From IMG/VR virus record IMGVR_UViG_3300032226_000438: DNA of 20,000 nt. One strand, 5' to 3'. The notes under the pieces are model-generated. The model worked only from the letters and a program-made list of their open reading frames with translations. It was not told the DNA's origin and did no database searches. The position numbers and the translations under genes were made by a program. Below are positions 1-15,642 of the stretch, one piece after another; positions within the stretch are counted from its first letter, which is position 1; the number at the start of each line of letters is the position of its first letter. The stretch is from an uncultured virus (IMG/VR IMGVR_UViG_3300032226_000438). Its lineage: Duplodnaviria; Heunggongvirae; Uroviricota; Caudoviricetes; Crassvirales.

Positions 1-3000
1 TAATTCTTTATTACGAGCTAACATAATTATATCTTTTTGATTTTTTTGGTAAGTAGCTATTGAATAATAATCTGAAGAATCATTTTTACTATTACCTATA
101 CCATAAGATGAACCATATTTTTTAAGAGATTTTTTTCTTAATATATCATAAGATGTATTAGTAGATGTTAATCCATTAATATCAATAATTTCTCCAATAA
201 AACCATCAGCAATGTTTCTCATCGCTTTATCTTTACCATCACCTTCTGGAGTTCCTTTACCAGTATTATCAAATCCTCCTTTATAACCTTGAAAACCTGA
301 TACTATAATAGGATTTAATTCACTACCTAATTCATTTACATCTTCTTCTTCAAATGCTTTATTATCATCTACTATAATTACATTGTTATAATCATCCATA
401 ACATCATTATATATATTATAATATAATGGAGATACTTCAATGTCACCACTTCTTTTACCAAGTAATGTTATTTCTTTAGTATTTTCTTCTCTATCAACAC
501 TAACATTATTATTATTAAAAGTATTTTTAGGAAAGTTATACTTATCTAATATCATGTTTAATACGTTAACACCTGTTGCAGGATTGTTAACTAATTCAAC
601 TATTTTATTATTTAATAACTTTGAATAGTTTTTTAATACATCAGTATAAAATTCAACTGGTATTAAGTGATTAAAACTATCTCTAGTAGTATCAAATCCT
701 GTAGTGCGTAATGAATATACAGCTAGTAATTCACCAACAAATTTAGCATCATCATTATTACTCTTTAATAAGTTTCTCCAATCTTGAGTAATTCTATCTT
801 GTTGGTCTTTGTCTTTAAAATCAACACTAAGAACTTGTAATTTTAAACCTTCACCTACATAACTTTTATCTATTTGTAAAGCATTAATAAATAAATTGTC
901 TGCGTATTTTGATTTTATTTTTAAGAATGCTTCTTCATTTAAAGATTTTAATTGACTATCCATTTTATTAAAATAATCACTTTGACTTTCTACAGTAGCT
1001 TTATAATATAAAGCATTGTATAACTTACCAAGAATCTTATCATCAATCTTTTTAATAAAGTTTCTCGATTCAATAAGTGTTCTAAATGAAGTTAGTTCTT
1101 TTAAGTCTGAGTTAAAAAACTCTGGAAGGCTTAATAATTTATTTACTATATCATTCTGTTCATTAATAAACATGTTAAATCTTGTAGTAAACATTTTCTC
1201 ATCTCCAAAATGATTTTTAATTGATTCTACATCAAAGTATTTTACTTCTGGATTTTTAACATAATTATTATAGTTTACAATATCTATATAATTCTCAAAG
1301 TAAGTAGGTTTACCACCACGATTACCTCTTTGTATATATGTTACAATATCATTAAATTCTTTACCTAATTGTTCGAGAATATAATAATTACGATATATTA
1401 TTTTTTCTATTTCAAGAAGTTCTGCACCAGCTTTTACATCATTTATTTCAATGTTTTTACGATTTTTAATATACTTTATAATACTATTCATATCAATATC
1501 AATAGTAACATTGTTACCTTTGTCAACATCAGCAGCTATAAGTTTCTTTTGTTCTGGAGTTAACATTGATTTACTAAGCATATTAGTAAATGCTTTATTA
1601 AAATATATTACATCTTCTAATGGATAACCTAAATGTAATGCTGCCATTGCTATATTAGCATTACTAGGATTTAATCCAAAATAACTAATCAATGGATTCT
1701 TACCATTATCTACAACTGCTGATAGTATTGTACTAAAAGCTCTTACTATAGTATTTTCATTATTAAAATCATATATACTTGATAAATCAACTTTAATATT
1801 TTCTAACTTTCCTGCATGCTTAATTGTTAATGTATCTAATAATTTAATTCCTGATTGTTGTATAATAGCTCTAGCAGCATTATGATTAGCAGCAATACCA
1901 GTCATATCTTTACCAACATTCATAGCCATTACAGTATCAATCCATAATGAAGGGTCTATAAATGTTCTAGCATTTCCATTTAATATAGACTTTTTATCAT
2001 TATCAGTTTTTTTATCGAATATATCTACAGTAACATTCTTATCAATAAATTCTTGATTCTCATCAAGCATATCATAGAATCTCATGTTTAATACAGCATC
2101 TTCTATAACTTTAAAACCTCCAGGAATAAGTTGTGATTTTAATGTTGTAGGATGTGATAACACAGCTCTCATTATATCTAACTTAGTATTATCAGATTTT
2201 AATGAATTATTATACATATTATAAGCTATCATAGCATTATTGTATGCTGTACTACCTTCTCTTAATACATTAGTATATTCATTATTATATTTATCTACTA
2301 TACTATTATATTCTTTTAATATTTCTTCAGGATAATTATTTCTATCATTACCATATTGTGATGTAATATTATTTATTAACTGATTTTTTGCTTTACTTTT
2401 AGATTTAAAATATACTTCATTAATATAATCTTCGTACTTTAATTCTGTTGATTTAAAGAATCCAAACATTTTATCTATGTCAAAATCTAATCCTGATAAT
2501 GCAGTAACCATTGGTGGCATAATAATAGCACTATCATCATTAGGTAAGAATCCTACAATCTTAACTTTAAACATAGAATATTTATCTTCAGTAGGAATAC
2601 GATATAGTAACCCTTCTAGTAATTCAGGATATGTGCTTCTTAAAGCATCCATATCTACAGTCTTTGATACTTTATCTACAAATTCATATATCTTTTTATC
2701 ATGAATAGGTGCGATAATTTCAAAATGGTCTATACCTAATGCTGGAGTTTCAATACCATTTTTATCAACATTCCATACTATTCTAGGTTTATTTTTAAAA
2801 CCATAAGATGATGCGTTAGCAGCTTTAAAACCTTTAACAAACTTTCTTACTGTAACATTATTTTTAAATATAGCATTGGTTTTAGGTTGTACTCTATTAG
2901 TTACAAATGGATGTGCTAATGGTAAACTTGTAATTAAATTACCATCTTCATCATAAGTAAATTCTAATGCTTTTTGCATATTAATAGTATCTTCAGACAT

Positions 3001-6000
3001 TTCTTCTTGAAGTACTTTAACAAACTTTTCTACATTAAAATCTTTACCATCACCATATTTTTCTTTTAATTCTTTAAGAGATATATTAACATCTTCAACT
3101 AGTATCTTATTATACATAGTTATGATTGCATCTTTAGTAGTTACTTTACCAGCTATATTAAATGTAGCATCATCAGGAATATCAGCCATTATCAGTTTCA
3201 TTAGCTGAGTACCATAAATACTTTCTTTACTAAAGTGTCCTTTAGGTGTTTCATTTTGTTTCTTCCAGAATCTAAATGGTACTGTAATAGTATGACCTTT
3301 CATATTACTATCAACTGGAGCATACATATTATTTCTATCATCTGTGATATCAGTACTTGGGTCTTCTGTTTTATCTGAAATAGGTAATCCTACTTTTACA
3401 GCAGTATTAAATACTACTAAATCTGAAATCCTTTTATTTTCAACATATTTTACAGTATGTGTAGTATCATTAAATTCGTAACCAAATTTATTTTGTAATA
3501 TGTTTCTATAAAAAGCATTGTAATTAGGATTATCTATAAATTCACCTTTTTCATTTTTAAGTTTTTGTAAACCATAATAAGGAGTTATCAGCATTTCTGA
3601 ATCCTTTATTTGAAATGGTTCATTATAAAAGCTCTTATTATCCTCTCTTTTAATACCACTACCATTATAAAAATAAAATGGTTTTATAGTTGTAAATCTT
3701 GAATCTGTACTTACTTTATTATTAGCTACATTATAACCCACAATTGAATTTCCAATCATAAGTTCATCCATTATAAGTTGGTCTGCATCAGTCCAATCTC
3801 TTAAACCTACCATTCTTTGTCTATAAGCAATAGGGTCTATATATGCTTGAGCATCAGTTTCTGAAGTATTATCAAATTGTGTTAATACATCTTGTTTTCT
3901 AATACTTAATAATGCTTGTTCAATTTCTCTATACTGTGGGTCTTGTGTAAAGAAATCATCTACATCATTAAGTATAGTAATTCTCATTTCTGTATCATCC
4001 TTTAATATAACTTTATCAGCTGTATTCTTAGGATTAGTATATGATGCAGTCATATCCATATCTATACCTGGAGATATGTTTTGTTTAGCTCTTTTAAATA
4101 CTTCTTCAATACGAGGATAGTATGATGGGTCATTAATAGTTAATAGTGTAATGTTTACATAAGATGCAGTAAATCTTTTAAGAAAATTATTTATTTCTTT
4201 TTTAGTATGAAGTATATTATCTGCTTTAATTTTATTTAAAAAATCTGTTCTTTCTTTAGGAGTTAACTTAAGACCTGGTTTTATAAACGGTTTAGCATAT
4301 CCTTGTATTTTTGATTTTAATAAACCTTCATTATCTATTATATCTAAACTCGTAAGATATTTAATAAACTCATTAGAACTTTCTTCAAAGTATTTATCAA
4401 ATGCTTTCTTTACATTAAACTCATTAAATTCAAGTTTATCTTCTTTAAGAATTTTATCTATAGCTTTAAAGATTACATATTCTGAACCATTTTTTCTATA
4501 ACTTTTAACGTCTCTATCTCTATTTCCTATAGATTCAATTCTATCTTTTTCAAATAACATTAAGTTATATAACTCTTTATCTATATCAATATTTCTACCA
4601 ATAGGTACAACATTATTTACAAACACCATATTACCTGAATCTCCTGGTACTGGTACTGGATAACTATTTTCTTTGTGCATTGATAACAACATTTCAGCTG
4701 CTAACTTTTTATCTAACTTTCCAATAGTTGTTCCTTTATCATTATATTGGTCATCATAACCAATAACTTGTATTACTTCAAATCTATCATCTCTATTAAG
4801 TACAGGAAGTTTTTTAAATAAAGGGTCTTTTCTTAGTTTATCAAAATGTTCTTCTGTATTATTTTGTACATAACCAATAAAGTTACCAGTAGTATCTTGA
4901 TACTGCATAGTCTTTTCTACAGTCATGTGTACAGCATTGCTTGACTTTGGTATATACTTTACTAATTCACGAATAAGTTCTTTAGTTGTAAATCTATATT
5001 TTTCATTATCAAGACCTTTTTCTCTTGTATCAAAAGTATAAGTATTTTTACCATAATTATATCTTTTATAAAAATCATCATCACTTAAAGAATTATATAT
5101 TTCTAAATTCTTATCATATCTAAGTAGTATTTGAGTAAGTATAGTTTCAAATTCTTTTATTTTACTTAAATCAATCTTTTCTTTATTACTTAACATTAAA
5201 GCATTTACTATATCTTTATACTTATATTCAGTCTTAGTTTTAATACCAGCATTAAGCATTGTAGATATAATATTCTCTGCTGATTGTCTATTTGATAATA
5301 CAGGATATATACTTTGTTTTTTATCTTTTATAACAGTTTTATAAGTAACTCTAATTTTATTACCAATAGCTACATATAGTTGTCCATATAATTCATCAGC
5401 ATTTTCACTATTATCAATATATGATTTAAGTCTTTTTATATACTCTATAGACTTAGAATATAATCCCATATTATATTTTAAATCATCAACATTTTTAGAG
5501 TTAACTAACTTATCTACAGTCATAGCATAAGCTGTATTAAGTTTATAATTAAGATTAATATTTAAACCTAAATTATCTTTTTCATCACTAATAATAGACT
5601 GTAATAATATTTTAGTATTCTTATTTAATGTAGTAGTAGGAAACTGGAATGTCTTAACTATTGACCATGCTTCTTTAGAATCTTTTTCTTCTTCTACTAT
5701 TGAAATATCTTCTGAATCTTCATGAGAATATGATTCATTTTCTATATCAACATTGTATCCATAGACTTTTAGTCCTTTAAGAATAGTAGAATAAAGTTTT
5801 CCAGAATCAGGTTTTACTTTGGTGTTTTTTACTAACACAAACTCGTTCTCTTCAGTAAGTTCTATAGCTTGTATATCAGGTCTTAATGATTTTACAAGTT
5901 TTACTACAGTAGTAAGATTAGCAGCATTAGTTTTTTCTAATAACAATAATACTAATTCATTTAAAAAGAAATTCTTTTCTGTTGAACCTTTAATAATAGA

Positions 6001-9000
6001 TATTAATTTATTAGGGTCATCGAAATCCAACTTCTTTTCTTGTATTGCTAATGCTAATAATGCTCTACTTGCATCAGCTAATGTAACTTGGTCTAATTCA
6101 GGTTCATTATCTAAGAAGTAAGCATCATCTACTTTACTATAAAACTCTCTTATTAATTTATTATTAGTATTTAATTCTATTTTTAAATCTTCTATATAAT
6201 TATATAATACACTAAAGTCTTTAATCCTTTCGCTATTATACATAGCATCTCTAATAAATTCAGCATCACTTAAATACTTTTTTCTTAAATCCTTTATTGT
6301 ACTATTATTAGTATTTTTAAGAATATGTGCTATTACATTATATTTATCTAAATCATTAATACTACTTAAAGACCTTACAAATTCATTAAATGATTCAGTA
6401 TAACTTACATCACTTTTATCTTGAAATTTGTTAGTTATCTCTGCAACAAACTGTGGTACTTCAGTAGATTGACTTCTATAATATGTTTCATAATTTAATG
6501 GTTTTCTAATACTCTTTTTAACATCATCATCTAATATTAAAAATCTACTAGTATATACTCTATCTGTTTCTTCATAAAATAATCCTTCTGCTATTAATGG
6601 TTCTTCTTTTATTGCTTCATCAAAATCTCCAGTAATAGGTTTAGAAGGTGTTGTTCCAAATACATATTGTACATTAACATAAGGGTCTCTATCTACATTA
6701 GTTATGAGATATTCAGACATTAATTTCTCACGATAATCTCTTTTAGATACTAAATCTTCAAAGTTAATTACCATGTTTTTATCATTAATATTATATTTAT
6801 TAATGAAATCATCATAACCTTTAATACTATTAACAAAATCAGTAGGAGTACTATATGTAAAATTAGTATAGTTATTTAATATTTCATCTATTACTCCTTT
6901 TAATTTAGATTCATTTAAATAAACACCTTCAACAATACTACTACTTTCTGCTAATTCAATAAGTTCAGTTATTTTATTTTTTAATCCTTTTTTATATTCT
7001 TTTGGTGCGTCATTATACTTTTTTAATGTTGCTGGAAGAATTACTGTTTTACCTAATTTATCAGATGTTTTATAGAATACTCTAAACTTATCTTCATAAG
7101 CATCTGTATTATATTCATTTAATATATCATTTTCTTCATTTGTTAAATTCTTTTGTGCAATAATTTCTTTTTTATTAATAACATATACTGTAGGTCTTTG
7201 TGTCTTACTATTTATTCTTTCACTTACAGCTTCATAATCTTTTGTTACATTTAATCCTGTAGTTCTTGCTCCTGTAAACTTTACTCTATCATAATCTATT
7301 TCAACTAATTTACCACTTGATAAATCTACATTACTAGCTAATGACTCTATTTCATTTCTTATGAAATTAGACATCATAATATTTCTTCTAGCTCTAGGTT
7401 TATTATCATCATTTTCTGTAGTATAAGCATATATAGATTGCTTTAATGTATTCATTAAACCGACTGGAATATATTGAGGTATATCTTGTGAAGTATCTTT
7501 ATAAGCTAATACAATATTTAAATTTCCTTTCTCTGATTTGTGAAGTAATATAGTAGCACTCTTTTTAAATAAATCTTTTTTAGCTTTATTTGTATATAAT
7601 TCTTCAAATTGTGAACGAGTATAATTAGTACCAAGTGTTTCACCATCTAATGTTACAACACCTCTAGCCATTAAATTACCAATAATATTATTTAATCCAT
7701 CATCATCAGTTGCAATTCTAGGATAAAAACTTCCATATATAGCTTCATCTACTGATTCAGCACCAAAGTAATCACCTCTTACAACTAATGTAGAATCTTT
7801 GTACGGATTATAAGTTATATCACTATCTATAAGTCCACTATATTGAAATGAATATTTTGATTCAGCAGTACTAATTTCATCATCAGATAATGGTGTTATA
7901 CCTTCAGTCATAAAGTTTGTTAAATCATCACCATAATTTATAAACTCTACTTTTCTTACAAACTCCTCATCATTTAATAAACTCTCATATATAGTTTTAT
8001 TCTCTAGTATATGAGAATTAGCATTCTTAGGATTTTCATCACTTGTTGGGTCTGATAATATAATAAAATTATCAACTATAGAATATAATTTTGGATTAGA
8101 AACTATTAGAATTTTATTAGGGTCTTTAGTTTTTAATATTTGTTCTACTTCAGGAATAGAATACTTATCATAATCTAAATAAATAATATCTTCACTTCCA
8201 ATATCATTTATAAATTTATCTACATTAACTCCTGGTGAAACATATACAATACTGCCAATATATTTATTCTTTAATTTTCTAAAAGAACCTTTTGTTTTAA
8301 GATTTGTAATATCACGTTTTACTCCTTTCTTTACAACTCCTAAGTCTTTTAATTCCTGAATATCTGTATCAGTTATTTCAGGTTGTTCAGCTGCATTTGT
8401 AAGTAATGGTATTAACTCATTAATATAACTTTTAATATTCTGTTTCTCTTTTAGTGTAGCTTTATTTCTATTAAGATTTTCTGTATTTCTTATTACATCT
8501 ATTACTTTATTTATAAGTTCTAATAGAGAGTTAATTAATTGTTCAAGAATACTTATCTCACGATTAATAAAATTAAGTTTTTCTATAATATCTTGTTTAG
8601 GTATAGATTCTGTTTCATTATTAAACATTTGTTCATAATAATCTTTTTGACCTTGATAGTATTCTAACTTATCTTCATAGAATTGTTTAAGTTTTTCAGC
8701 ATTATCTAATAAATTAGCTTCATTTTCATCAATAATATAAGCCTGTAATTTCTCTATACTTAATGAATCTCCATCAAGACTTTTAAGATTTTCTATCTTA
8801 CTTTCTATATCTGTTACTTTTTCTTTTAATTTGTCTAATGTTAATTCTTTAATATTATTATCAATAGCATTAGCAATAGTTATTACTTCAACACTTGTAT
8901 TATTTTCTTTAGCTTCGTTAACTTCATCTAAAGTAAAATTAATAAGTCGTAATGTATTATCTACTAATTCTTTAATAGAATAATATCCATACATTTCACT

Positions 9001-12000
9001 AGGTATAAAATCTTCATCACTTATCTTTTCAAAACCTAACTGTTGAGCAACTACTAATTCTTCTGCTGATACATTATCACTAATTAAATTTTCATATACT
9101 TTATCAAGTTCTCTGTAAGATTCTTCATTTGCTTTATAATATGAATTACCTGATTTTATAACATAAAAATCATTTTCATAATCAACTTCTTTAGCTGATT
9201 TATATCTTAAATAGTTATTATTAAGATAGTATATTTTATTATCAAGAATAGTAAAGAAACCTTTATTTATTTTAGATAAAAATATAGCTTGTTGTTTATT
9301 ATCAATTTCAGTTTTAAGATTATTAGTAATTTGTTTTCCAGTAATAACTATGTCACTAACTCCTTCTAAACCTCTTGCTGTTTGTATATTACTATACAAC
9401 GTAGCCATTTCTTTAATATCACTTTCTTTTACTTCTTTTAATAATCCTTTATAATCATTATAAAAATCAATAATATCTTTATAGTAAGCAACAAAGTCTG
9501 TTACAGTAAATTGTTTATCTACATTTGACTGAAGTACTTCTTTTTTAAAATGGTCTATTTTAGCTTTAAATATTTTATTAATATTCTTTGGTGTAATTAT
9601 GCCTTCAGTTTTGTTTGTAATTTCTAATACTTCAAATGCTGAATTATAAATCTTTCCACGATACTCAAGAGGATGTATATCAGATATCACCTTCATTGAT
9701 TCCATTGGTGATTCTTTTAACTCTGTTTTAATACCTGTAATAATACCTTCTTCACTACGTTCTAATATATAAGGTATTACACTTATTCCTGAAACTTTAA
9801 AATCAGTTCTATCTTCAAACATATCAGCATAAGCAGATAACTGTACACGATAACCATCTTTTTTTGATAGTGATTCTCCTGTTTTTTCATTATTATAATC
9901 TTTATAAGTTTTTTCATCAAACGTCTTAACATCCATAATATGAATGTTACCTAATCTATCATAAGCAATTAAATCTGTTTCTCCAGCTATATTCTTTTTT
10001 GTTTGTCTTGAGAATAATACTACTCCTTCACTTATAAATGTAAATCCTTTTTTCTCTAAATAATCTTTTCTTTTAGCTATTACTGTAATAGCATCATTTA
10101 ATACTGTTTCATCAGAAAATAAATCTTTATATTTTTTTATTAAACTAGTTCTATTTAATTCTGTAGTTCTAAATATTTCTCTATGTAATGAATCTATAGT
10201 ATTTCCAGGTTTAACATATTTATCTTTAGGAGCAGATTCTGGATATTTACTATTACTAATAGATTGTTTTAATGATGTTGTTGACCTAAACTTTTCACCA
10301 TCTATTTCATAATTACCATTTTCAATTATAGAACCATCAACACCAAGTTGATTTCTTCTTCTAATATCAATACCTTTATTAGATATAACTTCTAATATTG
10401 TAGTTATATCTTCAGGACTCCTTATTCTAAATTTAAGTGATGCTAATTCATTTATCTTTTTATATAAATCTGGTTTTACTTTTTTACCTTTAAGTAATTC
10501 TGTAACTTGAGTAACAGTAAGTGTACCATCATCCATAAGTTCTAGGTATTTATTATTATACCTATCATTTATTTCATTGTATATCTTATTGTTTATATCT
10601 ATTTGACTTTCATATTTCTGTGCTTTAACAAATACTCTTCTATCAAATTCAGGGTCATAGAATTGATTACTTGTATCTATTAATTCTCCATTTATTAACA
10701 TAAATGGAATAGAGTGTAAAGTCGTAGAACCTTCTTCGTAGTATGATAACTTAACTAATTCTCTTTCTTTAAGACCTAACTTTCTAGCAGCTTCTTTTCT
10801 AGTAGCTTTATTTTTATTACCTAATGTAAATGGTGTAAGATTTACATCACTACCTATTGTTTTTATTGCTGGTATTTTAATATCAGCTTTTTCTAATTCT
10901 TTTCTTCTATTACTTTCTATTTTATATACTTCAGGATTAGATAACTCTGCTAACATATCATGTTTAACAATATTCTCAATGTTAGTTCTATCATATACTA
11001 CAAGTCCTTCACCAACAACAATAGCTCTATCTGGAAGTATGATTAATGGTTTATTTGTTTCAGGGTCAGTAACTTTTCTAAAAGTAGTAATTATATCAGT
11101 AGGTTTTATCTTAGATGTCTCTAATTTAAAAGTATCAGATGAATCTTTTAACGACATAAAAAATCCTATATTATCTTCTATTTTGTATAATACATATTCA
11201 TCATTATCAAATCTTATTAAAGTTCCTGTTGTAGGTGTTATATTATATTTTAGTTTATCTCCAGTAACTAATTGATTACTAGATATTCCATTAGAGAATA
11301 AATTCCTAAATCTAAGTTTACTAGGGTCTTCTCTTGTAAGTAATGCTGATGCTTTATTGGCTTCGTATATAGGAAATAATTGATTAATATTCTTTTTATC
11401 TTTATCTTTATATACACTATTAGTTGCTAAAGTATTTATAGGATGTGTTTCATCATATATATTTTCCTTATACAAATTATCTAATATAAGATTGATTTCA
11501 TCAGTTAAATCAGGTCTATCATTTTGTACTTCTTGTAAAAAGTTTATATACTTCTCATCTGTATCAAAATCTTCACTGCCTCTTAATAATTCTAAATCTT
11601 CTATCTTTTCTAATCTTTCTTGTATCTTTCTATCCATACCAGCATACATAGAACCACTTTCTGATTCGTATGCTATAGCTTTAGAACTTGCTATTGATGC
11701 CATTATATCTGCTAACTCCATATTAGCATGATGATTTATTGCAGCTCTATGACTTCTACTACCCCAGCTATATCCTTCTTTAGGTTTATAAGTTGTTTTA
11801 GTTCCACCAATCTCATTCTTTGTTTTTTCAGCTATATATGTAGCTTTACGTTTTCTTATTTCTTGTATATTTCTAAGATTCTTACTAGGAGTTTGCATTT
11901 CATAACTCTCTAATTGAGTTAGTGCGTCTATCTTTAAATCTAATTCATCTATACCTTCAGGCATAGATAAAGTTCCTTTTTTAGTTTCTAATTGTTTAAA

Positions 12001-13482
12001 TAAGTCAGAATAAATTGCTTCATTCATTCTTTCTTTAATTATTAAATCACTATTAGCATTCTTTGTAATTAAAGGGTCAACTTTTAAATCATTATATGTT
12101 TTTAATAATTCATCAAATGAACCAACTTCGTTAAGTTTTAACTTAGGGTCTGTTCTTGCAGCTTCAAGCATTTCATTAGCTTTAACTTCATCTTGTTGAA
12201 GTAAATCTACGAATGCTTTTCTAGTCTTATAATATGGTGCTAATAATTTACCACTTCTTAAATCTTCATCTACAGTATTATCCATTTTAGCCAACCTCCT
12301 TACAGCTGGAGTAATAGCATCAAATACTTTACCACCTACAGCACCTAATGTTATTGATGTAAGAAACTCATCATTATTAAAATATTCTGGTAATACATTC
12401 TTAGCTATATCAGAATACTGTTTCATTATTGTTTCTATTCTATTATCAGGCATACCATCTGCTGCCATCTTAATAGATTCTTCTTTAACACCAAATTGCA
12501 AACCTTCTTCAGCTCCTTCAGTAATAGGAACTTTTACAGTTTTCCATGCTTTTTGTAATGTTCTTCTAGCTAAAGATTTAGTACTTAAATCTAAAGCATT
12601 CTCTGCTGCTTGAATACCAACTCTAGTACCAAACTGTTTAAATATACTATTGTATTGTAATAAGTCTAATGCTAATAATGGCATGTTACCAAGAAATGTA
12701 GCTGCTGATGCTTGTCCAGCTTTTTCAGTAGCTTCTTCCATTGACATACCTTCTTCCATATATTTCTGGTATGCTTGAGTACCAGCTTCAGTAGCTTCTA
12801 ATGTTCCTTCTGCCATTCTACTAAATACAGCAGCAGATACTCCAGTATAATTCTGTAATGCTGCACCACTCTTTTCTAATCCTTTAGCTAATAGATTAGC
12901 TGATTTACTATTAGCTGATATTCCTTTTGCTAATTTAGTTGATAACTTTCCAACTGTGGACATAAGTTTAGCACCACCTACTGATGGTATCATTAATGAT
13001 GCTGATGTAGCAATAGATGGAATCATAGATGCCCACCATTTAGCATTAGTAGGATGATATCCTTCTGCTGCATAAATAGGATTATCTTCAGCTACTTCTT
13101 TCTTTAACTCATTTATACTATCACTAAACCAATTACCAAATTCTCTTTCAGTTCCTTTTATAACATTAACCCATTGTGGTATGTCTAATAAAAATCCAGC
13201 ACCCTCTAATGTTCCTAAACCTATTTCTGATGCAGCTTGTATTCCTGCATTATAAAAAGCTTCACTTGTAGGTTGATTGATTAATCTATTTTGTTGTTGT
13301 GTTCTTTGACCCATTGGGTCATTCATTGCTTCAGCAAGATTTCTATCATACTTATTTTTACTTCCAGCAAAACTTTCTTTTAAATAAAAAGGTTCAGTAT
13401 TAGTTTTCAACTTAGTTACATCAATTATACCATCTAAGTAACTTTTACTATTATCAGGGTTTATTATAGACTGATTAGACAT
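1..13482 (-). CDS. Giant multidomain virion (ejected cargo) protein containing a crAss-like DNA-dependent RNA polymerase; at least 4494 aa, 3'-truncated by the window edge
   Basis: ATG at 13482-13480 (MSNQSIINPDNSKSYLDG...), 9 nt after the upstream TAA. I translated most of the frame by hand and met no stop. The ORF track lists no minus-strand ORF in 1-13482, consistent with no stop before the edge. The polymerase motifs are in frame with this start: TDAQAY (3841-3858), FNTAVKVG, GTQLMKLI, YRIPTEDKYS (2575-2604), GLDFDIDK (DFDID 2473-2487), AVVDNGKNP (1693-1719). Confidence 0.93.
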   Translation of the reverse strand, partial: MSNQSIINPDNSKSYLDGIIDVTKLKTNTEPFYLKESFAGSKNKYDRNLAEAMNDPMGQRTQQQNRLINQPTSEAFYNAGIQAASEIGLGTLEGAGFLLDIPQWVNVIKGTEREFGNWFSDSINELKKEVAEDNPIYAAEGYHPTNAKWWASMIPSIATSASLMIPSVGGAKLMSTVGKLSTKLAKGISANSKSANLLAKGLEKSGAALQNYTGVSAAVFSRMAEGTLEATEAGTQAYQKYMEEGMSMEEATEKAGQASAATFLGNMPLLALDLLQYNSIFKQFGTRVGIQAAENALDLSTKSLARRTLQKAWKTVKVPITEGAEEGLQFGVKEESIKMAADGMPDNRIETIMKQYSDIAKNVLPEYFNNDEFLTSITLGAVGGKVFDAITPAVRRLAKMDNTVDEDLRSGKLLAPYYKTRKAFVDLLQQDEVKANEMLEAARTDPKLKLNEVGSFDELLKTYNDLKVDPLITKNANSDLIIKERMNEAIYSDLFKQLETKKGTLSMPEGIDELDLKIDALTQLESYEMQTPSKNLRNIQEIRKRKATYIAEKTKNEIGGTKTTYKPKEGYSWGSRSHRAAINHHANMELADIMASIASSKAIAYESESGSMYAGMDRKIQERLEKIEDLELLRGSEDFDTDEKYINFLQEVQNDRPDLTDEINLILDNLYKENIYDETHPINTLATNSVYKDKDKKNINQLFPIYEANKASALLTREDPSKLRFRNLFSNGISSNQLVTGDKLKYNITPTTGTLIRFDNDEYVLYKIEDNIGFFMSLKDSSDTFKLETSKIKPTDIITTFRKVTDPETNKPLIILPDRAIVVGEGLVVYDRTNIENIVKHDMLAELSNPEVYKIESNRRKELEKADIKIPAIKTIGSDVNLTPFTLGNKNKATRKEAARKLGLKERELVKLSYYEEGSTTLHSIPFMLINGELIDTSNQFYDPEFDRRVFVKAQKYESQIDINNKIYNEINDRYNNKYLELMDDGTLTVTQVTELLKGKKVKPDLYKKINELASLKFRIRSPEDITTILEVISNKGIDIRRRNQLGVDGSIIENGNYEIDGEKFRSTTSLKQSISNSKYPESAPKDKYVKPGNTIDSLHREIFRTTELNRTSLIKKYKDLFSDETVLNDAITVIAKRKDYLEKKGFTFISEGVVLFSRQTKKNIAGETDLIAYDRLGNIHIMDVKTFDEKTYKDYNNEKTGESLSKKDGYRVQLSAYADMFEDRTDFKVSGISVIPYILERSEEGIITGIKTELKESPMESMKVISDIHPLEYRGKIYNSAFEVLEITNKTEGIITPKNINKIFKAKIDHFKKEVLQSNVDKQFTVTDFVAYYKDIIDFYNDYKGLLKEVKESDIKEMATLYSNIQTARGLEGVSDIVITGKQITNNLKTEIDNKQQAIFLSKINKGFFTILDNKIYYLNNNYLRYKSAKEVDYENDFYVIKSGNSYYKANEESYRELDKVYENLISDNVSAEELVVAQQLGFEKISDEDFIPSEMYGYYSIKELVDNTLRLINFTLDEVNEAKENNTSVEVITIANAIDNNIKELTLDKLKEKVTDIESKIENLKSLDGDSLSIEKLQAYIIDENEANLLDNAEKLKQFYEDKLEYYQGQKDYYEQMFNNETESIPKQDIIEKLNFINREISILEQLINSLLELINKVIDVIRNTENLNRNKATLKEKQNIKSYINELIPLLTNAAEQPEITDTDIQELKDLGVVKKGVKRDITNLKTKGSFRKLKNKYIGSIVYVSPGVNVDKFINDIGSEDIIYLDYDKYSIPEVEQILKTKDPNKILIVSNPKLYSIVDNFIILSDPTSDENPKNANSHILENKTIYESLLNDEEFVRKVEFINYGDDLTNFMTEGITPLSDDEISTAESKYSFQYSGLIDSDITYNPYKDSTLVVRGDYFGAESVDEAIYGSFYPRIATDDDGLNNIIGNLMARGVVTLDGETLGTNYTRSQFEELYTNKAKKDLFKKSATILLHKSEKGNLNIVLAYKDTSQDIPQYIPVGLMNTLKQSIYAYTTENDDNKPRARRNIMMSNFIRNEIESLASNVDLSSGKLVEIDYDRVKFTGARTTGLNVTKDYEAVSERINSKTQRPTVYVINKKEIIAQKNLTNEENDILNEYNTDAYEDKFRVFYKTSDKLGKTVILPATLKKYNDAPKEYKKGLKNKITELIELAESSSIVEGVYLNESKLKGVIDEILNNYTNFTYSTPTDFVNSIKGYDDFINKYNINDKNMVINFEDLVSKRDYREKLMSEYLITNVDRDPYVNVQYVFGTTPSKPITGDFDEAIKEEPLIAEGLFYEETDRVYTSRFLILDDDVKKSIRKPLNYETYYRSQSTEVPQFVAEITNKFQDKSDVSYTESFNEFVRSLSSINDLDKYNVIAHILKNTNNSTIKDLRKKYLSDAEFIRDAMYNSERIKDFSVLYNYIEDLKIELNTNNKLIREFYSKVDDAYFLDNEPELDQVTLADASRALLALAIQEKKLDFDDPNKLISIIKGSTEKNFFLNELVLLLLEKTNAANLTTVVKLVKSLRPDIQAIELTEENEFVLVKNTKVKPDSGKLYSTILKGLKVYGYNVDIENESYSHEDSEDISIVEEEKDSKEAWSIVKTFQFPTTTLNKNTKILLQSIISDEKDNLGLNINLNYKLNTAYAMTVDKLVNSKNVDDLKYNMGLYSKSIEYIKRLKSYIDNSENADELYGQLYVAIGNKIRVTYKTVIKDKKQSIYPVLSNRQSAENIISTMLNAGIKTKTEYKYKDIVNALMLSNKEKIDLSKIKEFETILTQILLRYDKNLEIYNSLSDDDFYKRYNYGKNTYTFDTREKGLDNEKYRFTTKELIRELVKYIPKSSNAVHMTVEKTMQYQDTTGNFIGYVQNNTEEHFDKLRKDPLFKKLPVLNRDDRFEVIQVIGYDDQYNDKGTTIGKLDKKLAAEMLLSMHKENSYPVPVPGDSGNMVFVNNVVPIGRNIDIDKELYNLMLFEKDRIESIGNRDRDVKSYRKNGSEYVIFKAIDKILKEDKLEFNEFNVKKAFDKYFEESSNEFIKYLTSLDIIDNEGLLKSKIQGYAKPFIKPGLKLTPKERTDFLNKIKADNILHTKKEINNFLKRFTASYVNITLLTINDPSYYPRIEEVFKRAKQNISPGIDMDMTASYTNPKNTADKVILKDDTEMRITILNDVDDFFTQDPQYREIEQALLSIRKQDVLTQFDNTSETDAQAYIDPIAYRQRMVGLRDWTDADQLIMDELMIGNSIVGYNVANNKVSTDSRFTTIKPFYFYNGSGIKREDNKSFYNEPFQIKDSEMLITPYYGLQKLKNEKGEFIDNPNYNAFYRNILQNKFGYEFNDTTHTVKYVENKRISDLVVFNTAVKVGLPISDKTEDPSTDITDDRNNMYAPVDSNMKGHTITVPFRFWKKQNETPKGHFSKESIYGTQLMKLIMADIPDDATFNIAGKVTTKDAIITMYNKILVEDVNISLKELKEKYGDGKDFNVEKFVKVLQEEMSEDTINMQKALEFTYDEDGNLITSLPLAHPFVTNRVQPKTNAIFKNNVTVRKFVKGFKAANASSYGFKNKPRIVWNVDKNGIETPALGIDHFEIIAPIHDKKIYEFVDKVSKTVDMDALRSTYPELLEGLLYRIPTEDKYSMFKVKIVGFLPNDDSAIIMPPMVTALSGLDFDIDKMFGFFKSTELKYEDYINEVYFKSKSKAKNQLINNITSQYGNDRNNYPEEILKEYNSIVDKYNNEYTNVLREGSTAYNNAMIAYNMYNNSLKSDNTKLDIMRAVLSHPTTLKSQLIPGGFKVIEDAVLNMRFYDMLDENQEFIDKNVTVDIFDKKTDNDKKSILNGNARTFIDPSLWIDTVMAMNVGKDMTGIAANHNAARAIIQQSGIKLLDTLTIKHAGKLENIKVDLSSIYDFNNENTIVRAFSTILSAVVDNGKNPLISYFGLNPSNANIAMAALHLGYPLEDVIYFNKAFTNMLSKSMLTPEQKKLIAADVDKGNNVTIDIDMNSIIKYIKNRKNIEINDVKAGAELLEIEKIIYRNYYILEQLGKEFNDIVTYIQRGNRGGKPTYFENYIDIVNYNNYVKNPEVKYFDVESIKNHFGDEKMFTTRFNMFINEQNDIVNKLLSLPEFFNSDLKELTSFRTLIESRNFIKKIDDKILGKLYNALYYKATVESQSDYFNKMDSQLKSLNEEAFLKIKSKYADNLFINALQIDKSYVGEGLKLQVLSVDFKDKDQQDRITQDWRNLLKSNNDDAKFVGELLAVYSLRTTGFDTTRDSFNHLIPVEFYTDVLKNYSKLLNNKIVELVNNPATGVNVLNMILDKYNFPKNTFNNNNVSVDREENTKEITLLGKRSGDIEVSPLYYNIYNDVMDDYNNVIIVDDNKAFEEEDVNELGSELNPIIVSGFQGYKGGFDNTGKGTPEGDGKDKAMRNIADGFIGEIIDINGLTSTNTSYDILRKKSLKKYGSSYGIGNSKNDSSDYYSIATYQKNQKDIIMLARNKEL
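420..5700 (-). other. Domain: single-chain two-barrel RNA polymerase of the crAss-like / phi14:2 gp66 type (boundaries approximate)
   Basis: Ordered motifs: YPVPVPGDSG; DPSYY...FKRAKQNISPG; ETDAQAYI...YRQRM; KPFY; QIKDSE; VFNTAVKVG; QNETP; GTQLMKLIMAD; YRIPTEDKYS; catalytic DFDID at about aa 3666-3670; IPGGF; GIAANH; SAVVDNGKNP. DFDID is the catalytic loop described for phi14:2 gp66, replacing NADFDGD of cellular RNAPs. Confidence 0.92.
9770..10315 (-). other. Domain: PD-(D/E)XK (RecB/Cas4-like) nuclease embedded in the giant protein, about aa 1057-1238
   Basis: Translation reads YEIDGEKFRSTTS...GNTIDSLHREIF...FISEGVVLF...IAGETDLIAYDRLGNIHIMDVKT...YRVQLSAYADMFE. This gives motif II G-x-x-D (D at 9973-9975), motif III D-x-K (9925-9933) and the RecB-family Q-x-x-x-Y (9829-9843), in the canonical order and spacing. 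Confidence 0.85.
12300..13260 (-). other. Domain: N-terminal Gly/Ala-rich amphipathic helical region, putative membrane-inserting ejection domain
   Basis: Segments IGLGTLEGAGFLL, WWASMIPSIATSASLMIPSVGGAKL, GVSAAVFSRMAEGTLEA, AATFLGNMPLLALDLLQY, ITEGAEEGLQ and SITLGAVGG. The E-G-x-E-E-x-x-Q motif followed by a G-x-x-G-G helix is a pattern I recall from podovirus internal virion proteins. Confidence 0.6.
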
Positions 13483-13494
13483 AATTTAGTTTTA
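13483..13494 (-). promoter_or_regulatory. A/T-rich translation initiation region without a Shine-Dalgarno sequence (Bacteroidota style)
   Basis: The minus strand reads TAA AACTAAATT ATG, with no GGAG-type element and an A at -3. The same pattern precedes 15642 (TAATAAACA ATG). Confidence 0.5.
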
Positions 13495-15642
13495 TTGATT
13501 TCTTAAAATTTCGTTTAATGCTGTAAAATTGTTATTACCTATTTTCATAATATAATCTTCTCCTTTAGTAAATTTTTCTGTTTGAGGATTAAATATTCTT
13601 TCAGTAAATTTTAATACTAAATCACTTCCATCTCCATAATCAAGCATATTATTATTTGCATCAAATTTAGGTTGTGCTATAATAGATACATCACCAACCA
13701 TAGTATTATTATCTAATGGTTGACCACTATATTTAAATGAAGGAATAATATTCATTCCAGCAAGTTGTTTTCCATTACTAAGATTTTCTATTGAAACACC
13801 GCTTAATGGTGGTATAGATGGAAAAAAAACAGCTCTTCCAGGTTTATCTATTGCGTTAACCATAGGTTGAAAACGAAAACTTCTATTCTTTTGTTCAGGA
13901 GTTGCAGTATCAATAAGATATTTATTCCCATTACTATCTTTTATTACATAACTATTAGGATTTGCTAATACATTTTCACCAAATTTACCTACAATTTTAT
14001 AATCAGTATTTTTTCCTGAAAACCATCCTCCTGAAGTAGGTTTATTATCTTTTTTCCAATAATAATCTTCTAATCCTTTTGCTATATCTTTTATCACATC
14101 ATCATTTGGTATTGATTTAGTTCCTTTTTCATTAAACATATAAACATTACTTTCATCAACTCTACCACTTAACTGTGATGCTAAATCAGTTAATTTTACA
14201 CCATCTATTTTATTATCTTTATCAGGAACAATCATCTTTTGAAACATAGATATTTGTTTACTTTGAGAATCTTTATATCTTTTTAATGTTGTAGCATTTA
14301 ATTCACTAACTGATATATCTTTACCTTTTTCTTTTTGTAATTGAATAGCTGTTTCTTTAAGTCCTGGCATTTCTTTATCTAAGAAATCTATAATCTTTTT
14401 ATCTTTTACATTATCTAATGTAGCTAAATTAACAGCTTTTAACCCTAATCCTTCACCTTCAATACTTTCAGGTTCAATTTTCATAATTTTATCAGTAATC
14501 TTGGGATTTTCTATTATTCCGAATTCTGTTTCTACTTTTACACTTTTACCTTTTTTAGTTTTTTTATGATACTCTCCTGTTAATGATTTATATTTACCAT
14601 TAATTTCTCTTTGATAAATATTACCTTCATCATCTTTATAAAATCCATTTAACACTTTACCATACATATCTACTTTCATTTCATCATTAACAGTCATTCC
14701 TGTTTTTAATTTAAGAGGATTAGATGTTTCATTTTTTAATGTAATATCTGAAAGTATTCCTCTATCAAGAGCATCTTGTTTTTCAAGTTCTTTATCTATT
14801 GATTTTTTAGCCATGTGTAATGCTAATTGGTCAGTACTAAACATTGATATATCTCTATCAACATACGCAGCCGCATCAGCAGAACTATAAACTATATCGT
14901 TTACCATTTTCATAGCTTTTTCAGTACCATATACACGTTGTAAATCTTGAATATAAGAAAATGCTTTGGCATCAGACATTACAGATTGCATTGTACCATT
15001 AAATACTGTTTTTAAATCTACAATTTCATTAGTTATTTTATGTGTATATATACCATTAGATTGAAATGTATAATTTTTATCAGCTTTATATTTACCAGCT
15101 ATATCATCTGACATCTTTTTTAAATCTACATAAGAAGCTGGTTGTCCACCTTGAAATGTACTATACTCTCCATTATCATTATAAGACTTAAACTTACTTG
15201 CAGAACTTACATAATCATTATAAATATCTCGAGTTATATCACCTTTAGCTAATCTTGATTTTAAATCTTCATTCCATTTAGATGATGCTTCAGCATTAGC
15301 TTTAAAATTATAAGCTACACCTCCAGGTTGATTAGATTCAATCATAAAAGCTTTTATATCTCTTAATGCTTTTACTCCTTCTAAAGAATTATTAGTTCTA
15401 AATGTTTCTACAGCTTTATCTTTAGCTTCTTTTATTGGATTCAAGTATTTACTTTGTACATCTTGAGCATCACTAGTTAAGTGTGCTGGAGGTTGTATTA
15501 TTGATACATCATCAAATAACGATTGCATTCCAGTAGCAATATTAGTTAAAGGAGTTATATCAGGAACAAGATTTCTCTTCTCTGGCACATATAGTGTAGG
15601 GTCTAACTTTGCAAATGTTTTTCTAAATCTACTTATAGCCAT
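13492..15642 (-). CDS. Putative ejected cargo / internal virion protein, 716 aa (positional equivalent of crAss001 cargo gp46)
   Basis: Long ORF with ATG start and TAA stop, tightly packed between the first cargo gene and the RNAP-containing gene. No catalytic motif recognised. The product call rests on synteny. Confidence 0.65.
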   Translation of the reverse strand: MAISRFRKTFAKLDPTLYVPEKRNLVPDITPLTNIATGMQSLFDDVSIIQPPAHLTSDAQDVQSKYLNPIKEAKDKAVETFRTNNSLEGVKALRDIKAFMIESNQPGGVAYNFKANAEASSKWNEDLKSRLAKGDITRDIYNDYVSSASKFKSYNDNGEYSTFQGGQPASYVDLKKMSDDIAGKYKADKNYTFQSNGIYTHKITNEIVDLKTVFNGTMQSVMSDAKAFSYIQDLQRVYGTEKAMKMVNDIVYSSADAAAYVDRDISMFSTDQLALHMAKKSIDKELEKQDALDRGILSDITLKNETSNPLKLKTGMTVNDEMKVDMYGKVLNGFYKDDEGNIYQREINGKYKSLTGEYHKKTKKGKSVKVETEFGIIENPKITDKIMKIEPESIEGEGLGLKAVNLATLDNVKDKKIIDFLDKEMPGLKETAIQLQKEKGKDISVSELNATTLKRYKDSQSKQISMFQKMIVPDKDNKIDGVKLTDLASQLSGRVDESNVYMFNEKGTKSIPNDDVIKDIAKGLEDYYWKKDNKPTSGGWFSGKNTDYKIVGKFGENVLANPNSYVIKDSNGNKYLIDTATPEQKNRSFRFQPMVNAIDKPGRAVFFPSIPPLSGVSIENLSNGKQLAGMNIIPSFKYSGQPLDNNTMVGDVSIIAQPKFDANNNMLDYGDGSDLVLKFTERIFNPQTEKFTKGEDYIMKIGNNNFTALNEILRNQ

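Follow-up and report, generated by a model that had tools for sequence, protein, structure and literature searches.

The window studied here is the whole 20,000-nucleotide (nt) stretch of IMG/VR record IMGVR_UViG_3300032226_000438, from an uncultured Crassvirales virus. On its minus strand it carries a single open frame of 4,494 codons that begins with an ATG at position 13482 and runs to position 1. What does so long a frame encode, and is the product whole? A sequence-only reading had proposed that the frame holds the whole injected cargo of the phage in a single chain, with a membrane-like N-terminus, a nuclease, a coiled coil, a P-loop-like domain and a virion RNA polymerase (RNAP). We arrive at a narrower answer: the frame is in all likelihood the 5′ part of a natural fusion gene of a freshwater Crassvirales phage, joining a first cargo protein (of the phi14:2 gp67 and crAss001 gp47 type) to the virion RNAP (of the gp66 and gp50 type), with the cargo ejected together with the DNA. 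We refer to its product as the giant. Coordinates of all features are collected in the table at the end of the text.

A crAss-type RNA polymerase in a giant predicted cargo protein

The polymerase module was identified by alignment to two cultured crAss-like phages, Bacteroides phage crAss001 and Cellulophaga phage phi14:2. Using hhalign, amino acids (aa) 3093-4290 of the giant aligned with residues 961-2182 of crAss001 gp50 (probability 100, E 3.7e-42), and aa 3024-3961 with residues 795-1648 of phi14:2 gp66 (probability 98.7, E 2.8e-16, 796 columns); a second run against gp66 gave a probability of 98.9 (score only). By tblastn, both crAss001 gp50 (E 4e-39) and phi14:2 g066 (E 7e-7) were detected. 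DFDID is the motif named in the gp66 study (Drobysheva et al., 10.1101/2020.03.07.982082). Ahead of the giant's DFDID, YRIPTEDKYS aligns with YRIPNQGQSS of gp66, and the RxP element 30-40 residues upstream is retained. The giant thus has DFDxD at the homologous place and homology over both barrel domains and the connector, as expected of a gp66-family member, and the aligned motif together with the hhalign matches bears out the prediction of a crAss-type polymerase with DFDID in the same chain. Judged by these alignments, the giant is an RNA-polymerase cargo protein of a Crassvirales phage.

The N-terminal module (N-module, aa 1-470) is the most conserved part of the giant. In a relative (P0033) that is about 46% identical to the giant overall by BLASTP and 48% in alignment A1, identity is 82-92% in the N-module, 36-54% in the polymerase region and 16-34% in the middle. 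Invariant N-module residues include D46, R66, Q70, G94, G96, P135, R222, E225, D273, Q276, Y277, E322, E325, E326 and G380. A search with profile A5, built from 21 sequences, gave 2,268 cluster representatives at E<=1e-3, of which 1,178 pass E<=1e-30, the match beginning within the first 160 residues in all of the 150 best of the 2,268. Among these 150 listed representatives 146 were new, 53 of them at least 3,000 aa long and 76 of 1,000-2,999 aa. Short relatives gave 17 matches, 16 of which are 72-98% identical pieces, mostly on short contigs; P0133 (1619 aa, 34% identity) may be a split form. As to known proteins, aa 80-386 resemble residues 100-398 of phi14:2 gp67 (hhalign probability 91.7 with profile A3, 42.5 with A5), and the N-module resembles a p-crAssphage protein annotated as 'RNAP associated protein fused to zincin protease' (E 1e-6 to 7e-8). 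From aa 470 to about 1004 follows an extension that the giant has in common with giants of about 28% identity.

The predicted N-module model is all-helical (mean pLDDT, the predicted local distance difference test score, 60.6; predicted template modelling score, pTM, 0.59) and found no fold match, the best Foldseek hit having an E value of 0.11 and a TM score under 0.2. The supposed membrane-like character of the N-terminus was not recovered, since no 19-residue window reached a Kyte-Doolittle value of 1.6 and the best in the N-module was 1.20. The invariant acidic and aromatic residues E225, D273, Q276, Y277, E322, E325 and E326 fit no known family. LPD22, a single lead from the ESM Atlas, was confirmed by Pfam in 0 of 21 A5 members; the Atlas otherwise returned viral hypothetical clusters. 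Conservation of the N-module far exceeds that of the polymerase core, which singles the module out as the part that would fit invariant virion machinery and recommends it for structural work.

Behind the extension lies a PD-(D/E)XK nuclease of the RecB/Cas4-like type, and here the sequence-only reading was right. The region matches the phrog_298 exonuclease (E 9.5e-7) and residues 1710-1924 of crAss001 gp47 (E 5e-20; the gp47 nuclease region spans 1706-1924) with every motif retained, AGETDL...IMDVKT...QLSAY of the giant aligning with AGEVDI...IYDVKT...QLSAY of gp47. Its motifs are E1168-x-D1170, D1184-x-K1186 and Q1214-x-x-x-Y1218, and all six named residues are invariant in 13 relatives. The match to NCBIfam Cas4 (E 0.007) was far below the cut-off, and Pfam gave none. 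A PDDEXK domain has been described in a large transcription-block protein of some crAss-like phages (Yutin et al. 2021).

Between nuclease and polymerase lies a middle part (aa 1300-2230) that BLASTP aligned only with closer relatives, at an identity of at least 44%. The position corresponding to the gp67/gp66 gene border of split phages lies around aa 2130-2230. A model of the middle tile (mean pLDDT 54.2, pTM 0.31) contains an alpha/beta sub-domain that is probably the 'P-loop-like' domain of the earlier reading. In this low-confidence model the sub-domain had only weak Foldseek matches (E 0.012-0.15), all of them P-loop or RecA-like (Fap7, adenylate kinases, RIG-I and Rad54 domains), and no match of the tile reached E<=0.001; the ESM Atlas yielded nothing usable for it. 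Motif and family searches did not support a P-loop assignment: the 4494 aa contain no Walker A GxxxxGK[ST] and match no NTPase family in Pfam, NCBIfam or PADLOC. These three libraries gave nothing above noise for the whole window protein. For the coiled coil, a crude heptad scan, which is not a validated predictor, counted 8 windows against a shuffle mean of 5.15, none of them in aa 1500-1700.

The gene continues beyond the window

An open reading frame (ORF) listing with open ends gave the frame as one unit, and its translation meets no stop codon up to the window edge. At the stop probability of 0.097 per codon expected for the same base composition (25% G+C in the frame, 23-32% across the window), 4494 stop-free codons would arise by chance with P about 5e-200, so the single minus-strand ORF of the sequence-only reading is real. 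We judged the ATG at 13482 to be sound because 9 nt separate it from the stop codon of the upstream ORF (13492-13494), and because the first residues, MSNQSIINPDNSKS, are common to eight of nine aligned close relatives, the ninth row beginning at residue 6.

Relatives show how far the gene extends. One of them (P0002) is identical at 4204 of 4392 positions (96%), collinear from residue 1, and 5,416 aa long on a 98.8-kb contig. About 36 more proteins are 44-85% identical to the giant and mostly 5,100-5,800 aa long; the shorter ones among them probably stop at contig ends. Scanning metagenome contigs with an alignment-based query gave 13 loci, six of which carry the whole gene as one uninterrupted ORF (L084, 5,505 aa; L086, 5,486; L087, 5,473; L092, 5,711; L093, 5,445; L094, 5,613). 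Measured against these sequences, the frame is cut by the window edge and not by biology, with about 900-1000 residues lying beyond base 1. The window-encoded part has a mass of 514 kDa, and full-length relatives (5416-5711 aa) reach about 620 kDa. Single-protein pattern queries found no relative in viral or metagenome contigs, whereas alignment-based or core queries did, and megablast of the window against phage records gave no match.

The C-terminal end of the window part is variable. Alignment with the 96% identical P0002 ends at aa 4391, and aa 4392-4494 (window 1-310) are missing there. The tail nevertheless keeps 83-84% identity in the 70% identical L084 and L086, and 52-61% in giants whose identity is otherwise 28%. 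A tail that is absent from P0002 yet kept in distant giants must therefore be a mobile cassette, and the pattern indicates that small modules behind the polymerase are exchanged by recombination. No family, and no Pfam match, was found for aa 4369-4494. In the full-length relatives the cassettes comprise cpYpsA (L094) and NADAR with a 2OG-Fe(II) oxygenase (L092); L084, L086 and L087 have no recognised cassette and L093 has only a weak DprA-like match (E 0.0046). More distant giants additionally bear ART-PolyVal and DUF1848. After the cassettes, all six full-length relatives carry a superfamily 1B (SF1B) helicase, which lies beyond the window edge. It matches Dda-like phrog_325 (E 1e-34), AAA_30, RecD TIGR01447 (E 5e-11) and RecD/RecD2, and the relatives' consensus contains the Walker A sequence GRAGTGKT; the SF1B features are thus those of the relatives.

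The cargo is divided between more than one protein. In L084 a 1,571-aa ORF encoded behind the giant matches, in its C-terminal part, phi14:2 gp65 (E 4e-19), crAss001 gp49 (1e-18), cr118_1 gp15 (3e-33) and cr50_1 gp_05257 (8e-36). Since this gp65/gp49 homologue is separate, the lineage has a two-in-one fusion, of a gp67-like with a gp66-like protein, and keeps the third protein apart. The view of the whole cargo as a single chain therefore has to be given up: in the relatives, the 1571-aa partner and two ORFs of about 700 aa remain genes of their own. The cargo genes of crAss001, which had been given as gp47-49, are likewise corrected to gp47, gp49 and gp50, with the RNAP in gp50. A side observation concerns a cysteine-free ORF of 449-473 aa between giant and partner (L084:26555-27904; L087:18262-19683), for which no family match was found.

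Several points weigh against the fusion reading. Searches of PDB sequences with the single protein and with profile A3 returned 0 matches, not even 6VR4, and the link to gp66 is therefore drawn from tblastn and hhalign against the phage record. The resemblance of the N-module to gp67 is moderate and its probability differs between the two profiles; the models of the N-module and of the middle part are of low confidence and lack a fold match; and no function can be assigned to the about 930 aa of the middle part. The C-terminus, the helicase and the partner are known from relatives and not from the window itself. Finally, packing and ejection of the giant are inferred from homologues found in virions.

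Terminal cysteines at the borders of cargo proteins

Although each of the other five frames of this DNA contains 45-213 Cys codons, no cysteine (Cys) occurs among the 4,494 aa of the giant's window part; the muzzle fragment encoded in the window has 5. Most full-length close relatives have exactly one Cys, placed 1-3 residues before the end, and among the best 120 of 473 RNAP homologues 108 have a Cys within the last 8 residues. The sole Cys of the 1,571-aa partner is its third residue, and each of the five observed partner starts is MACNI. In L084 the giant's Cys, at 5504 of 5505, faces Cys3 of the partner (L084:26500-26515, 28125-28140), and the same arrangement is found in L087, L092, L093 and L094. 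The cultured phages have Cys at the corresponding borders: in phi14:2, gp67 C1797 (the last residue), gp66 C3 and C2179, and gp65 C3; in crAss001, gp47 C2339, gp50 C5 and C2404, and gp49 C5.

We compared 55 complete RNAP ORFs for this trait. A Cys stands in the last 10 aa of all 47 that lack the third-protein module and in none of the eight fused with it, seven of which have no Cys whatsoever (three-in-one ORFs without any Cys are those of L011, L013, L015, L016, L034 and L056). In L018 (L018:1031-17077) the first protein is separate (1567 aa, with a C-terminal Cys), and polymerase and third protein are fused (3780 aa) with an N-terminal Cys only. A FastTree phylogeny built from 56 RNAP cores shows at least 3 changes in fusion to the third protein and at least 6 in the N-terminal cysteine state, so fusion and fission recur. 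A change of the fusion trait coincides with one of the cysteine trait in 3 of 3 independent pairs, too few for significance (p 0.25). In an independent set, made up of 129 N-module proteins with a length of 1,000 aa or more, none has an N-terminal Cys and 106 have a C-terminal one, the misses being partly contig-end truncations or cases with Cys 9-15 residues before the end.

Facing terminal cysteines on consecutive cargo proteins suggest an end-to-end disulfide chain. Disulfides are present in the tail and portal vertex of crAss001 virions, and the study of that phage included both reduced and untreated samples. An arrangement of the same geometry, from a late Cys to Cys5 of the next protein, has been solved in Cyanopodophage A4, where a disulfide joins Cys1715 of gp27 to Cys5 of gp26, both ejection proteins (PNAS 2025, PMC12002296); the A4 proteins are unrelated and belong to a T7-like podophage, whereas in crAss-like phages such a bond is predicted from the sequences. 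Our literature searches found no paper describing a terminal-cysteine rule, and 'cysteine' and 'disulfide' have 0 occurrences in the accessible text of the gp66 preprint (10.1101/2020.03.07.982082). We see the case as evenly balanced that the giant is one link in a covalently continuous cargo thread that would be found across Crassvirales, with the N-module leading, and that would be held together by peptide bonds where genes are fused and by terminal disulfides where they are split. If true, the thread would explain both the free fusion and fission of the genes and the loss of all other cysteines. The penultimate Cys of a complete giant would then probably, if speculatively, be tied by a disulfide to Cys3 of the partner, and the reducing cytoplasm would free the split parts.

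The same borders bear on the alternative that the giant is a true polyprotein, cut before or after packaging into gp67-like, gp66-like and helicase pieces that correspond to the units of the split phages. Drobysheva et al. (10.1101/2020.03.07.982082) wrote that fused forms are 'likely cleaved into individual components' and described a zincin protease in gp65 orthologues, and the giant does have a poorly conserved, linker-like stretch at the counterpart of the gp67/gp66 gene border (aa about 2100-2250; 43% and 25% identity). However, the zincin motif HExxH is absent from the window ORFs including the giant, from the six full-length relatives, from P0002 and from the 1571-aa partner, although a host or another phage protease could do the cutting. 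Terminal cysteine pairs placed exactly at the borders of split genes, moreover, suggest selection for continuity of the chain and not for its separation. We think cleavage unlikely, though it is the most probable of the alternatives.

Gene neighbourhood and probable virion origin

Upstream of the giant, the window encodes two cysteine-free ORFs of 716 and 708 aa and the C-terminal part of a tail muzzle protein. Family library scans gave no match for the 716-aa ORF, and the window ORFs show no detectable likeness to crAss001 gp45, gp46 or gp49. In L084, the 1,335-aa ORF at the muzzle position matches Pfam crAss_MUZ and a 216-aa ORF further upstream matches CrAss_Ring_2, giving the order CrAss_Ring_2, crAss_MUZ, 738 aa, 695 aa, giant, 449 aa, 1571 aa. 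By gene order, window and L084 together represent the tail-to-cargo block of Crassvirales.

This setting argues against a role outside the virion, in which the giant would be a late transcription, replication or repair factory inside the infected cell. A nuclease and a helicase are typical replication or recombination parts, which would suit such a view. The giant's gene, however, belongs to the structural block, where it directly follows the genes for ring, muzzle and the C1/C2 positions. Two cultured phages, moreover, have homologues of it in their virions: tandem mass spectrometry is cited in the phi14:2 record, with gp66 packed in the virion (10.1101/2020.03.07.982082), and mass spectrometry detected crAss001 gp45, gp46, gp47, gp49 and gp50 in virions, with gp47, gp49 and gp50 assigned to a capsid cargo zone and all five assumed to be ejected in a partly unfolded state (Bayfield et al. 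2023, PMC10172136). With the known cargo proteins (0.04-0.12% Cys in crAss001 gp47, gp49 and gp50) the giant also shares an almost complete loss of cysteine, which the muzzle (0.73%) does not show. We consider an intracellular factory very improbable.

At least part of the stretch is present in 20 public sequencing runs from 14 studies, with no RNA dataset among the runs listed. Contigs from four runs in four studies cover it at about 97% identity in pieces of up to 11 kb (for example 3045-13518 and 2462-13518). Among the rows listed for these contigs, indels form two clusters that sum to 0 or a multiple of 3; a 1-base deletion at 13384 has no compensating partner among them, and we make no claim that the frame is intact in those runs. 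The sequence-only reading had named a chimeric assembly as one ground for doubt, against which stand the collinear P0002 and the six full-length loci. That genes or strains were chimerically joined in frame by assembly has next to no chance of being correct: the window stems from a metagenome-type record and the run-contig comparison lists some joints, all with sides of 20-28 letters, but joints flanked by fewer than 30 letters are mostly due to repeats or to other organisms, collinear full-length ORFs occur on six contigs from separate metagenome records, about 36 collinear relatives at 44-97% identity speak against a chimera, and collinear ORFs together with the spanning contigs therefore exclude it for practical purposes.

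Comparison with known fused and split forms

The fusion type as such is already known in Crassvirales, and we do not claim the exact domain order as undescribed; the novelty suspected by the sequence-only reading is overtaken by published fused polyproteins and by RNAP-plus-helicase ORFs of 4774-4946 aa in annotated genomes. RNAP genes of up to about 6,000 aa are mentioned in a review. Among the best 120 of 473 RNAP homologues, 68 reach a length of 4,000 aa or more and 41 of 5,000 aa or more, and in 73 of these 120 both the N-module and the DFDID region are present by BLASTP. In IMG/VR, 22 of 80 loci have the RNAP core inside a frame of at least 4,000 codons.

A split counterpart with the same module order is phi14:2, whose gp67, gp66 (the virion RNAP, 2180 aa; 10.1101/2020.03.07.982082) and gp65 total 5398 aa, against about 5416 aa for the fused giant. 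In phi14:2 gp67 and gp66 are separate, and here they form one chain, at an identity of about 22-24%. Moreover, phi14:2 gp65 has a zincin HExxH at 245, which giant and partner lack, and compared with phi14:2 the giant's lineage adds the RecB-type nuclease, the variable cassettes and the SF1B helicase. In crAss001, gp50 and the gp47 nuclease match the giant, and a muzzle gene and two smaller cargo-position genes lie upstream in both phages. The crAss001 order is muzzle gp44, cargo gp45 (C1), gp46 (C2) and gp47, with gp49 and gp50 on the other strand, so that gp47, gp49 and gp50 are three genes on two strands; gp47 has an HExxH at 2157, and there is no helicase.

Giants that are alike in overall build are encoded by two gut Suoliviridae, as cr118_1 gp14 ('exonuclease V', 4946 aa, NC_055872) and cr50_1 gp_05258 ('DNA helicase', 4774 aa, MT774375). 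In both, the RNAP core lies near residue 2800-3400, a C-terminal SF1 helicase follows, the chain ends with a Cys 1-3 residues from the end, and a large Cys3 protein comes next. Between this gut and our freshwater lineage, likeness is detectable in the RNAP core only (E 1e-9 to 1e-14), and the profiles from this analysis did not detect the N-module or the nuclease in the gut giants. A more distant parallel is offered by polyvalent proteins of phages and conjugative elements, including fusions of N4-type virion RNAPs, which share the theme of a huge virion-associated chain with an early-acting polymerase joined to varying effector-like domains (Iyer et al. 2017, PMC5512222; 'crAssphage' has 0 occurrences in the accessible text of that paper). 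Effector-like domains in the giant's relatives are cpYpsA, NADAR, 2OG-Fe oxygenase and, in some, ART-PolyVal; the giant's polymerase is predicted to be of the two-barrel type, not T7-like.

Proposed role of the giant

Judging from the virion homologues, several copies of the giant would be packed in the capsid and would leave it partly unfolded through the tail with the DNA; the lack of cysteine fits passage as an unfolded chain. The crAss001 cargo zone could hold about 5.1 MDa, or about six copies of a 619-kDa giant together with a 181-kDa partner. By analogy with the homologues, the polymerase module would transcribe early genes after ejection, and the nuclease, the helicase and the variable enzymes may act on DNA or on host defence. 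More speculatively, the N-module may lead the chain and fit the portal or tail, nuclease and helicase together may process the incoming genome or host DNA or supply the polymerase with single-stranded template, and the cassettes may counter host defence.

Among the fused Crassvirales RNA-polymerase cargo proteins already known, the giant represents a further lineage, from fresh water and low in G+C, and provides a module map, from N-module through RecB-type nuclease, polymerase and swappable enzymes to SF1B helicase. Fused and split forms, together with the cysteines, offer a testable model for how about 0.8 MDa of protein per copy could be put in order for ejection, and a helicase fused to a virion polymerase points to a testable possibility, that opening the genome or drawing it in is assisted by the cargo itself.

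Features of the 20,000-nt window and the evidence for each
Feature	Position	Strand	Evidence
Predicted giant cargo gene, first 4494 codons (about 83%)	1..13482	-	ORF listing, relatives' lengths
Start of variable C-terminal cassette region, aa 4369-4494, cut by window edge	1..378	-	relatives
Predicted virion RNA polymerase module, aa about 2350-4310 (phi14:2 gp66/crAss001 gp50 type)	553..6435	-	hhalign, tblastn
DFDID metal-binding motif, aa 3666-3670	2473..2487	-	aligned with gp66 1361-DFDID-1365
Lineage-specific middle part, aa 1300-2230	6793..9585	-	16-34% identical to P0033
Alpha/beta sub-domain, aa about 1734-1860	7903..8283	-	model, pLDDT 57-79 locally
PD-(D/E)XK (RecB/Cas4-like) nuclease, aa 1084-1290	9613..10233	-	phrog_298 match, gp47 alignment and motifs
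N-module, aa 1-470, all-helical in the model, most conserved part	12073..13482	-	alignment and predicted model
716-aa ORF, 0 Cys, gene position of cargo protein C2	13492..15642	-	68% identical to L084 695-aa ORF
708-aa ORF, 0 Cys, gene position of cargo protein C1	15649..17775	-	75% identical to L084 738-aa ORF
Tail muzzle protein, C-terminal 741 aa	17775..20000	-	phrog_15100 E 3.3e-33; 87% identical to L084 1335-aa ORF

Further observations

Scans of the whole window found no Rfam family, no tandem repeats and no tRNA, and promoter- and terminator-like sites in it were at or below chance level. A scan of genome contigs found one 4.5-kb contig in an Alphaproteobacteria metagenome-assembled genome (MAG), and no host evidence. 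Short contigs of this lineage in MAGs labelled Alphaproteobacteria and Betaproteobacteria (L114, P0129) are probably binning noise. Under code 11, the frame holding the RNAP core is just 83-330 codons long in another 22 of the 80 IMG/VR loci (L030, L032, L033, L035, L037, L042, L046-L048, L050, L051, L053-L055, L057-L060, L062, L064, L067 and L068); these short frames probably stem from reassigned stop codons or from introns, as reported in gut crAss-like phages (Yutin 2021). L084 lies on a contig of 170,074 bases, against about 99-100 kb for other relatives, which may reflect a larger genome, a concatemer or a mis-join.

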